Assembly (NCBI RefSeq): GCF_001677475.2
Contig: NZ_CP015229.1
DNA length: 64,000 nt
Strand: one strand, 5' to 3'
Origin: Escherichia coli
GTDB lineage: Bacteria > Pseudomonadota > Gammaproteobacteria > Enterobacterales > Enterobacteriaceae
Below are positions 55,884 through 56,927 of the stretch, piece by piece. A program made the translations under genes and the position numbers. Below the pieces are notes generated by a model. It did no database searches, was not told the DNA's origin, and saw nothing but the letters and a program-made list of their open reading frames with translations. Each line of letters starts with the position of its first letter. Position 1 is the first letter of the stretch.

Positions 55884-56927
55884 TTATGAGTATTTAACGG
55901 ATGATGTTCCCCAGGGCACATTTCTGATGGGCCAACGGCATTTCTTACTGTAGTGCTCCCAAAACTGCTTGTCGTAACGATAACACGCTTCAAGTTCAGC
56001 ATCCGTTAACTTTCTGCGATAGCAGCAGATATGCCAGTAAAGAAATCCCATTAGACTATTTTTTTGATAATCTTCTTCGCTTTCGAACAACTCGTGAGCC
56101 TTTCGAGAAGCAAGCATTATATAATGCCAGGCCAGTTCTTCTTCAATTGTCCCGTTTTGAAAAGCTGTGCTCGATATCGAGATCATCCATGATAATTCCG
56201 CCGCCCATATTAGCTTCGCCGAGGATTTACCGGAGCAATGATTAGCGCAATCAGAGATATAGTCAGAGGGGAAAACAGCAAATTTATTCAACAAGGCGAT
56301 AACCTGCTCTGGGGCTTCCTCCATGTTCGCTTTAAAGGTATTGGCTCCATGGTCGCCAGAAAGAAAATGCTCCATTAAGGCACAATAACTTTCGCTATCG
56401 TCGATACCCCATTGATCCTCTAAAGACACGCGTCTTTTACTGATGATATCGATCGAATCAAAAGGAAGCACATGATATTGAAAGGTATCTTTGCCAGGTT
56501 CAGGCTTTCGCGGCCAGAACTCCAGCGTTTCAGACCATTGCTTATGATAGAATCGATAAGGTGCGATCAATTGTAGCGCCTGTAATTTCTCGATACTGAG
56601 CGGCTCAATACCTTTAGCCTGATAATAATGCAGCTGTTCTTTTTTTGCTTTAAAACCGGCCCGAACAATAAGCCCCATCATAATTAATAGATAAAGAAAA
56701 GAGCATCCCGCGGTAATCAGGCCTCTTTCATTCAAACCGTTGGATGTTATAGCTGCGAATACAAACATTACAGCGACAACACCTGTTAAATAAAACCCCC
56801 ACTTACAAAGCAGCATGGCCTTATTTTCTTTAATCATCCGTTCAAAATTACTATTAAATATTTCCCAGCCTTTGAAAGAATACTTCTCGCTCCCTGGATG
56901 GTTTTGCAATAAAACTTTTTTCATCAC
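55884..56927 (-). CDS. ynjI: Uncharacterized AT-rich inner membrane protein YnjI
   Basis: 347-aa ORF with AT-rich codon usage and two predicted TM helices near the N-terminus. Confidence 0.65.
   Translation of the reverse strand: MMKKVLLQNHPGSEKYSFKGWEIFNSNFERMIKENKAMLLCKWGFYLTGVVAVMFVFAAITSNGLNERGLITAGCSFLYLLIMMGLIVRAGFKAKKEQLHYYQAKGIEPLSIEKLQALQLIAPYRFYHKQWSETLEFWPRKPEPGKDTFQYHVLPFDSIDIISKRRVSLEDQWGIDDSESYCALMEHFLSGDHGANTFKANMEEAPEQVIALLNKFAVFPSDYISDCANHCSGKSSAKLIWAAELSWMISISSTAFQNGTIEEELAWHYIMLASRKAHELFESEEDYQKNSLMGFLYWHICCYRRKLTDAELEACYRYDKQFWEHYSKKCRWPIRNVPWGTSSVKYS

Follow-up and report, generated by a model that had tools for sequence, protein, structure and literature searches.

The AT-rich open reading frame between gdhA and topB in the 64,000-nucleotide stretch of Escherichia coli DNA analysed here (the window; contig NZ_CP015229.1) is the ortholog of E. 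coli K-12 ynjI (b1762). The explanation that we prefer as a whole, to which we give an even chance, is that YnjI is an intact, selectively maintained inner-membrane protein serving as a membrane-tethered, non-enzymatic binding or adaptor module. The gene is already known, being annotated in Escherichia as encoding a DUF1266 membrane protein, and the observation as stated is an ordinary one; ynjI itself matters little as a catalogued gene, of which the preliminary description was essentially the database entry. What is added for the DUF1266 family is a confident structural model that has no solved relative and a subfamily signature composed of the QNHP motif, a two-helix hairpin and the EQxxYY and WSETLE segments. 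To these come a promoter/terminator block that is nearly invariant across genera, implying selection on ynjI regulation, a chromosomal site with four states (ynjI, a mosaic ynjI allele, an Hsp70 gene paired with a J/Sel1 gene, or nothing) and the recurrence of DUF1266 genes beside Sel1-repeat, J-domain and HscC genes, a candidate association.

Identity, boundaries and regulatory region of ynjI

The list of open reading frames contains an intact minus-strand frame at 55884..56927 that encodes 347 amino acids from a GTG codon. Its description as AT-rich was borne out, with a GC content of 41.7% (GC3 42.9%) against 54-55% (GC3 54-59%) in nudG, gdhA, topB and selD and 50.4% in the whole window. 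Translation very probably begins at the ATG at 56924 and yields a product of 346 amino acids, since K-12 b1762 is annotated with 346 amino acids beginning MKKVLL, since the AGGGA Shine-Dalgarno sequence lies 5 nt from this ATG and only 2 nt from the GTG, and since the ATG is kept in Pseudocitrobacter, where the GTG is replaced by GTT. The Shine-Dalgarno sequence is conserved in four of the five lineages discussed below and reads AGAGA in the fifth.

55884..56924, minus strand: ynjI coding sequence, 346 codons plus stop, with the stop codon at 55884-55886
56930..56934, minus strand: Shine-Dalgarno sequence AGGGA, read from the sequence, 5 nt upstream of the ATG at 56924

The gene is flanked by gdhA on the plus strand, ending at 55767, and by topB on the minus strand, ending at 57052. 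Their products are 99.6% (GdhA) and 99.2% (TopB) identical in amino-acid sequence to those of K-12 and RefSeq genomes annotate the matching regions as gdhA, ynjI and topB, which establishes the location originally given to the frame. YnjI of the window and of K-12 (NF008480 / PRK11380) have the same length, the same position between gdhA and topB and 98% amino-acid identity; with 7 of 346 amino acids differing (2%) and a dS of 0.09, the window carries an allelic variant and not a different gene. No complete E. coli genome was more than 98.3% identical to the window over the 1.5-kb ynjI region. A dN/dS of 0.09 relative to K-12 indicates that ynjI is not a chance reading frame and, together with a dS (0.093) within the range of the flanks (0.06-0.14), that it is a real gene under purifying selection, inherited with its neighbours.

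Because gdhA and ynjI are convergent, their stop codons face each other across a 116-bp spacer, which carries two REP-like palindromes in inverted orientation.

About 55777..55806, no strand: REP-like palindrome 1, GCCTGATAGCGCTACGCTTATCAGGCCTAC, downstream of the gdhA stop codon, with arms at 55777-55784 and 55795-55802
55840..55868, no strand: REP-like palindrome 2, GTAGGCCGGGCAAGCGCAGCGCCCCCGGC, inverted relative to palindrome 1 and just downstream of the ynjI stop codon

As an inverted pair the two palindromes match over 36 nt with 72% complementarity, and the spacer containing both folds into a hairpin with a z-score of -4.8 relative to shuffled controls. The pair fits the REP/BIME form, namely imperfect GC-rich elements of about 30 nt ending in CTAC/GTAG, inverted and placed between convergent genes. 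The 12-mer TATCMGGCCTAC occurs once within the 64-kb window, and a full REP consensus gave no match, the REP assignment being based on direct reading and folding. The frame had been placed immediately after a REP pair; the pair does adjoin it, but precedes it only in plus-strand coordinates and in fact lies downstream of the ynjI stop codon.

On the other side of the gene, towards topB, three elements were recognized.

57014..57021, minus strand: TATTCTGA, matching the central wwTTCykA of the BglJ-RcsB box, some 65 nt ahead of the inferred start of transcription
56960..56987, minus strand: putative activator-dependent promoter, read by eye
56977..57015, minus strand: terminator-like AT-rich hairpin with T run, 16 pairs, tail TTTTGCATGG

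The K-12 ynjI promoter is activated by BglJ-RcsB through a box centred 65-68 nt upstream of the transcription start, mutation of which abolishes activation, and repression by H-NS/StpA is moderate, with a moderate increase of ynjI expression in an hns stpA mutant (PMC3950696). This is the only report of functional biology that we found for ynjI, other mentions being in screens or tables. The box mutagenesis was performed in K-12 (PMC3950696), to which the box and promoter sequence of the window are identical. From the sequence we infer the placement of the promoter and of the transcription start: the putative promoter would consist of a -35 element TTGGAT (56982-56987), a 16-nt spacer and a -10 element TAAAAT (56960-56965), and was missed by a consensus promoter scan because the -35 element is too weak. 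The terminator-like element serves the selD-topB transcript, overlaps the ynjI -35 region and is conserved across genera. The promoter/terminator block is nearly invariant in K-12, in the cryptic Escherichia lineage and in Pseudocitrobacter, with variation in the sequence just upstream; since synonymous sites are saturated between genera (dS about 1.2), its invariance suggests that the regulatory block is itself under selection. Strong repression by H-NS has also been reported for another E. coli DUF1266 gene (PMC7582179).

Domain architecture, predicted structure and family conservation

Profile searches assigned residues 168-339 to Pfam DUF1266 (PF06889) with E = 6.2e-26 and 92.1 bits (gathering threshold 27 bits), covering profile positions 1-175 of 175. 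The NCBIfam equivalog NF008480, itself named "hypothetical protein", matched residues 2-347 over profile positions 1-350 of 353 with 659.2 bits, well above its curated cut-off of 386 bits. The label "uncharacterised" holds; no clear homology to a characterised core protein family was found, and the PDB contained neither a sequence relative nor a fold relative. The elements of the protein are encoded as follows.

56892..56909, minus strand: codons of the N-terminal motif L-Q-N-H-P-G, residues 7-12 of the 347-amino-acid frame
56745..56819, minus strand: transmembrane helix 1, residues 37-61, from Kyte-Doolittle analysis and the AlphaFold helix 37-61
56658..56729, minus strand: transmembrane helix 2, residues 67-90, from Kyte-Doolittle analysis and the AlphaFold helix 67-105
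55911..56426, minus strand: DUF1266 domain (PF06889), residues 168-339, all-alpha and predicted to be cytoplasmic

The N-terminal transmembrane helices that had been proposed are supported by two hydrophobic segments beginning at residues 37-47 and 69-75 (mean Kyte-Doolittle value above 1.6 over 19 residues), both matching helices of the structural model; the same analysis found no further hydrophobic segment in the remaining 257 residues. Two transmembrane segments are present in 58 of 65 aligned family members. The Lys/Arg residues at the outer ends of both helices and the loop of only 5 residues between them point to a hairpin with both termini in the cytoplasm, and we consider this topology, with the DUF1266 domain facing the cytoplasm, to be likely. 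The second transmembrane helix runs on as a juxtamembrane helix bearing the conserved E97-Q98..Y101-Y102.

An all-helical AlphaFold model was obtained from an alignment of 65 sequences with a pLDDT of 94.2 and a pTM of 0.90. It comprises an extended N-terminal segment that includes the conserved motif (pLDDT 87-93), helices 20-34, 37-61 and 67-105, and an all-helical C-terminal region. A model computed from the single sequence was unusable (pLDDT 42.8) and was superseded by that from the alignment. Comparison of the model with solved and viral structures returned no match, and a profile search of PDB sequences with YnjI returned nothing relevant.

The 65 members of the family alignment are 16-80% identical. 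L-Q-N-H-P-G is the most conserved stretch of the YnjI-type family, with Q8 and N9 each kept in 95% of the 65 members, and the best-conserved positions overall are Q8, N9, Q98, Y101, L118, W131, L135, P139, W241, A266, W267 and F281. Several of these fall outside the Pfam domain and, on alignment evidence, define a YnjI-type subfamily, all architectural elements of which are present in the window: the QN(H)P motif, two transmembrane helices, the EQxxYY helix, the WSETLE..P segment and the C-terminal DUF1266 domain. The wider DUF1266 family has a set of polar residues at D244, R247, R253, E263, N290 and R292 (AWDxxR ... R ... E.EAW ... N..(L/I)GR), with D244, R247 and R253 found in 82-88% and R292 in 65-70% of members. 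Escherichia YnjI, that of the window included, has E244, W247, S253 and L292 in place of the D/R/R/R residues; the window protein keeps E263, W267 and N290 and, judged from this polar cluster, is a divergent member of the family.

Distribution of ynjI and variation at the gdhA/topB site

We surveyed 5,426 complete E. coli genomes, of which 5,388 could be assigned to a site state, and found ynjI in 3,505 of the 5,426 (65%).

K-12-type ynjI (95-99% nucleotide identity or more): 3,491 genomes
Divergent ynjI allele (60-80% nucleotide identity): 14 genomes
Empty site, with gdhA and topB 76 bp apart: 1,514 genomes (28%)
HscC-like Hsp70 gene with a J-domain/Sel1-repeat gene: 355-369 genomes (7%), CFT073 among them

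The divergent allele resides at the same locus and encodes a product (P0005) with 68% protein identity. It is a mosaic, with 87-100% identity to K-12 through the promoter and the first ~135 nt of the coding sequence, 47-78% identity from there to the stop codon and 98-100% beyond it, and its flanks have a dS of only 0.01-0.09. The last ~30 residues of TopB differ between the site types, from which we conclude that the variable segment extends into topB. The polymorphism of the E. coli site looks more like the outcome of loss, replacement and homologous recombination than of insertion.

Besides E. coli, ynjI was found between topB and gdhA in four further lineages.

Escherichia sp. MOD1-EC7003 (cryptic lineage): topB/gdhA site, 90% amino-acid identity
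Pseudocitrobacter vendiensis: topB/gdhA site, 81% amino-acid identity
Two enterobacterial contigs (sequence-read and metagenome assemblies): topB/gdhA site, 60% and 57% amino-acid identity

Across these four lineages ynjI has 39-44% GC against 53-61% in its flanks and a dN that is 1.3-8 times that of the flanks; the dS of the Pseudocitrobacter gene (1.16) equals that of its flanks. A motif-based scan of 100,044 species genomes, built from a narrow alignment and detecting only proteins that keep two short motifs, gave no match in most Enterobacteriaceae and added none to the lineages given above. At E <= 1e-3 an exhaustive profile search retrieved 737 cluster representatives, of which 48 also reached E <= 1e-30; roughly 50 of the best-scoring representatives match YnjI over nearly its full length. 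The named ones among these, with ~25% identity, belong to Hafnia alvei, Photorhabdus, Serratia fonticola, Ignatzschineria, Sinomicrobium and Chitinophaga, in each of which the gene is solitary and has an unrelated location, with no conserved partner. Across phyla, a search for conserved neighbours of YnjI-type genes returned one weak upstream pair (22% identity, no Pfam family). Neither tblastn searches of plasmids and phages nor PHROGs yielded YnjI homologs; the sole "plasmid" match was dismissed, the record being of chromosome size (4.8 Mb).

The suggestion that the gene was probably acquired thus stands in part. Low GC content, repression by H-NS/StpA (PMC3950696), presence in only 65% of E. 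coli genomes, a patchy distribution and relatives at unrelated loci all agree with it, but a recent acquisition does not fit the same site being occupied in five lineages with a dS, relative to K-12 and to Pseudocitrobacter, matching that of the flanks. The shared site and the flank-like dS indicate that ynjI is old there; it is thus foreign-looking in composition and patchy, yet old at the gdhA/topB site. Selection for H-NS silencing or repeated allele replacement may account for the persistently low GC content.

Candidate roles of YnjI and the neighbourhoods of DUF1266 genes

In the mechanism that we propose, a cytoplasmic N-terminal LQNHPG segment would lead into the two-helix membrane hairpin, followed by the juxtamembrane helix and by an all-alpha cytoplasmic region of ~250 residues with the DUF1266 domain. 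The weak putative promoter of ynjI is embedded in the topB terminator; in K-12, H-NS/StpA hold expression of the gene down and BglJ-RcsB activates it. Once the BglJ/LeuO/H-NS circuit is relieved of repression, YnjI would bind or sequester some partner from the cytoplasm at the inner membrane. The best-conserved positions of YnjI do not include a Ser/Cys/His/Asp set of catalytic type, and Escherichia YnjI has exchanged the D/R/R/R residues of the family for E/W/S/L, a conservation pattern that hints at binding or scaffolding over catalysis, and we put the non-enzymatic adaptor role, as a component of the mechanism, at slightly below even. In the wider family, the D/R/R/R/E/N/H cluster could form a ligand or active site.

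One candidate partner network for such an adaptor would be the HscC-type Hsp70 system, together with the J-domain and Sel1-repeat proteins that belong to it. The hscC-djlC-djlB cluster of K-12 includes two soluble DUF1266 paralogs, ybeR and ybeU, which overlap the following J-protein genes djlB and djlC, respectively, by 4 nt and have the Sel1-repeat genes ybeQ and ybeT and the Hsp70 gene hscC as neighbours. DjlC stimulates HscC, a chaperone whose cellular role is unknown (PMC8215388). The Hsp70 encoded by the alternative occupant of the ynjI site, which in CFT073 and in ~7% of E. coli stands at the same chromosomal position, is 43% identical to HscC and is accompanied by a J-domain/Sel1 fusion protein, the same domain types that surround the DUF1266 genes of the K-12 cluster. 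Sel1 proteins also adjoin DUF1266 genes in two unrelated loci, one in Ignatzschineria and one on a metagenomic contig, in the latter of which a 21-repeat Sel1 gene ends 2 nt before the start of the DUF1266 gene.

Several observations weigh against extending this association to YnjI. The Hsp70 and J/Sel1 proteins have no similarity to YnjI, contain no DUF1266 domain and are mutually exclusive with ynjI at the site; the pair is an alternative occupant and not a partner, and the sharing of a variable site may be a coincidence. YbeR and YbeU have the all-alpha DUF1266 domain in common with YnjI, but have no N-terminal motif, no membrane hairpin and no WSETLE segment, are ~21% identical across the domain (the YnjI-YbeU comparison giving this value) and keep the D/R/R/R consensus that YnjI has lost. 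Translational coupling to a J-protein gene is a feature of both ybeR and ybeU; ynjI is a single transcription unit with no adjacent or coupled J-domain or Hsp70 gene. No Hsp70 or J-protein gene was found within ~10 kb of YnjI-type genes in eight distant loci, nor in Photorhabdus, Hafnia or Serratia, and YnjI-type genes were likewise solitary in Chitinophaga, Ignatzschineria and metagenomic loci, with neither kind of gene nearby; no J-domain gene adjoined any of the three soluble DUF1266 genes that were sampled; and no J-domain fusion was seen among 27 multi-domain DUF1266 proteins, a few of which carry TPR, beta-helix/NosD or a handful of other domains. By analogy with the K-12 cluster, an HscC-type chaperone/Sel1 link of YnjI is conceivable, though we regard it as unlikely. 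The neighbourhood of DUF1266, Sel1, J-domain and HscC genes would, if real, give an experimental handle on HscC.

A different reading takes YnjI as a single-gene anti-phage or abortive-infection protein, in which DUF1266 would sense infection and the hairpin would oligomerise and damage the membrane. In its favour, E. coli strains differ in whether they carry ynjI, at a site that can hold other genes instead; the gene has low GC content and is silenced by H-NS; one of its alleles is a strongly diverged mosaic; YnjI has evolved more rapidly than the proteins encoded on either side; and the Serratia and Photorhabdus homologs lie near remnants of phage tail-fibre genes. The SLATT effector domains of conflict systems likewise have a two-helix hairpin followed by a long juxtamembrane helix, and the only PADLOC hit is a weak one, in which residues 45-119 align with the two-helix SLATT effector model RTasSLATT (E = 0.019, 12.8 bits). 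That score is, however, within the range expected from hydrophobic composition; no significant match was obtained in PADLOC-DB v2 and no Pfam SLATT family at E <= 1, and, unlike SLATT systems, ynjI has no associated nucleotide-signalling or reverse-transcriptase genes. Moreover, homologs are absent from phages, plasmids and PHROGs, no defence genes neighbour ynjI at the E. coli locus, and the gene, present in 65% of genomes, is vertically inherited with its flanks under strong purifying selection. A role in defence is thus, in our estimate, improbable.

We give still less credit to the idea that the gdhA/topB site is a recombination hotspot exchanging parts of one HscC-type Hsp70 / J-Sel1 / DUF1266 system, of which YnjI would be the membrane-anchored DUF1266 component, silenced by H-NS and activated by BglJ-RcsB. 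If true, HscC and the DUF1266 family would have a function in common, such as one in envelope stress or in conflicts with phages or competing bacteria.

The possibility that YnjI is an immunity or antitoxin-like protein against a membrane-acting or delivered toxin was considered because small all-alpha families of patchy and fast-evolving distribution are typical of immunity proteins, and because a very large gene lies upstream of one soluble DUF1266 gene and is translationally coupled to it. That large upstream protein is, however, the 21-repeat Sel1 protein and has no toxin domain, and no toxin-like neighbour was present at any YnjI-type locus examined, which makes this a very improbable role. 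There is only a slim chance that YnjI is an inner-membrane exporter of small molecules or a channel subunit: in an overexpression screen for tolerance of Ala-Ala, ynjI was one of 65 membrane-protein genes retained after the first round but was dropped in the second (PMC10299036), and the protein contains no more than two transmembrane helices, with 5 residues between them, and has its conservation concentrated in the cytoplasmic parts and not in the helices. The least credible view, that ynjI is a leftover of foreign DNA, decaying or without function, whose reading frame simply happens to be open, could appeal to its low GC content and silencing, its frequent absence from E. coli genomes, the tolerated IS10 insertion in ynjI of a laboratory-evolved strain (PMC10044804) and the loss of the family-consensus D/R/R/R residues, but is disfavoured by the dN/dS of 0.09 relative to K-12, by a frame that is intact in all five lineages at this position despite divergence to dS >1 and by the conservation of promoter and start codon across genera.

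Alternative contents of the gdhA/topB site

The interval between gdhA and topB, which holds ynjI in the window, was found empty (76 bp) in 1,514 of the 5,426 complete E. coli genomes, while in 355-369 of the same 5,426 ynjI is replaced by a pair of genes encoding an Hsp70 and a J-domain/Sel1 protein. The Hsp70 is HscC-like (43% identity to the K-12 Hsp70 HscC), and its gene is overlapped by that of the second protein, of 647 aa, which combines a J-domain with eight Sel1 repeats. The loci concerned are as follows.

E. coli NZ_LT883142 (L003), 3365-7005: Hsp70 + J/Sel1 island, corresponding to window 55768-57051
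E. coli CFT073 (L010), 3001-6641: the same island, corresponding to the same part of the window
E. coli CFT073 (L010), 2131-2931: additional 266-aa ORF between topB and the Hsp70 gene
Window 57052-57140: variable 3' end of topB

The final ~30 residues of TopB vary among ynjI-bearing, empty and Hsp70-bearing sites, and the C-terminal 60 residues are 49-72% identical between site types. The variable segment thus runs into the topB coding sequence. The 266-aa ORF of the CFT073 island is absent from the NZ_LT883142 version. Its N-terminus resembles a signal peptide, and searches against Pfam and PADLOC returned no match for it.

Divergence and conservation of ynjI and its surroundings

Two segments were considered, one in another E. 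coli genome and one in the window.

E. coli GCA_014521985 (L005), 6001-7032: mosaic ynjI allele (P0005)
Window 56950-57025: regulatory block made up of the ynjI promoter, the BglJ-RcsB box and the topB terminator

Compared with K-12, the mosaic allele, counted in 14 complete E. coli genomes, is 87-100% identical from the promoter to about nt 135 of the coding sequence, whereas identity over the remainder of the gene falls to 47-78% (protein, 68%; dS saturated) and returns to 98-100% just beyond the stop codon. The regulatory block of the window is near-invariant between Escherichia and Pseudocitrobacter, a comparison in which synonymous sites are saturated (dS ~1.2) and the sequence adjoining the block has diverged.

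In every lineage with the topB-ynjI-gdhA order (window 55884-56924 and the syntenic loci L013, L014, L031 and L032), ynjI has a GC content of 39-44% against 53-61% in its flanks, and no drift toward host composition was seen across these lineages, despite long residence. None of the complete E. coli RefSeq genomes was more than 98.3% identical to the 1.5 kb at window 55700-57250, and dS relative to K-12 was 0.06-0.14 for nudG, gdhA, ynjI, topB and selD. The window seems to derive from an Escherichia lineage scarce among complete E. coli genomes. The 3' ends of nudG (+, 53543-53950) and ynjH (-, 53916-54188) share 35 nt (53916-53950), an overlap also present in K-12.

The YnjI membrane hairpin and Sel1-repeat neighbours

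Residues 45-119 of YnjI (given as window 56658-56795), comprising the membrane hairpin and a juxtamembrane helix, weakly matched a PADLOC model of a SLATT two-helix effector (E = 0.019, 12.8 bits), a resemblance that is probably compositional.

We also observed that Sel1-repeat protein genes repeatedly adjoin DUF1266 genes.

Metagenomic contig L023, 3-3669: 21-repeat Sel1 gene (980 aa) stopping 2 nt before a DUF1266 gene
Ignatzschineria rhizosphaerae (L012), 8171-9130: Sel1 gene two genes away from a YnjI-type gene
E. coli K-12 (L021), 2571-7216: Sel1 genes ybeQ and ybeT adjoining the DUF1266 genes ybeR and ybeU
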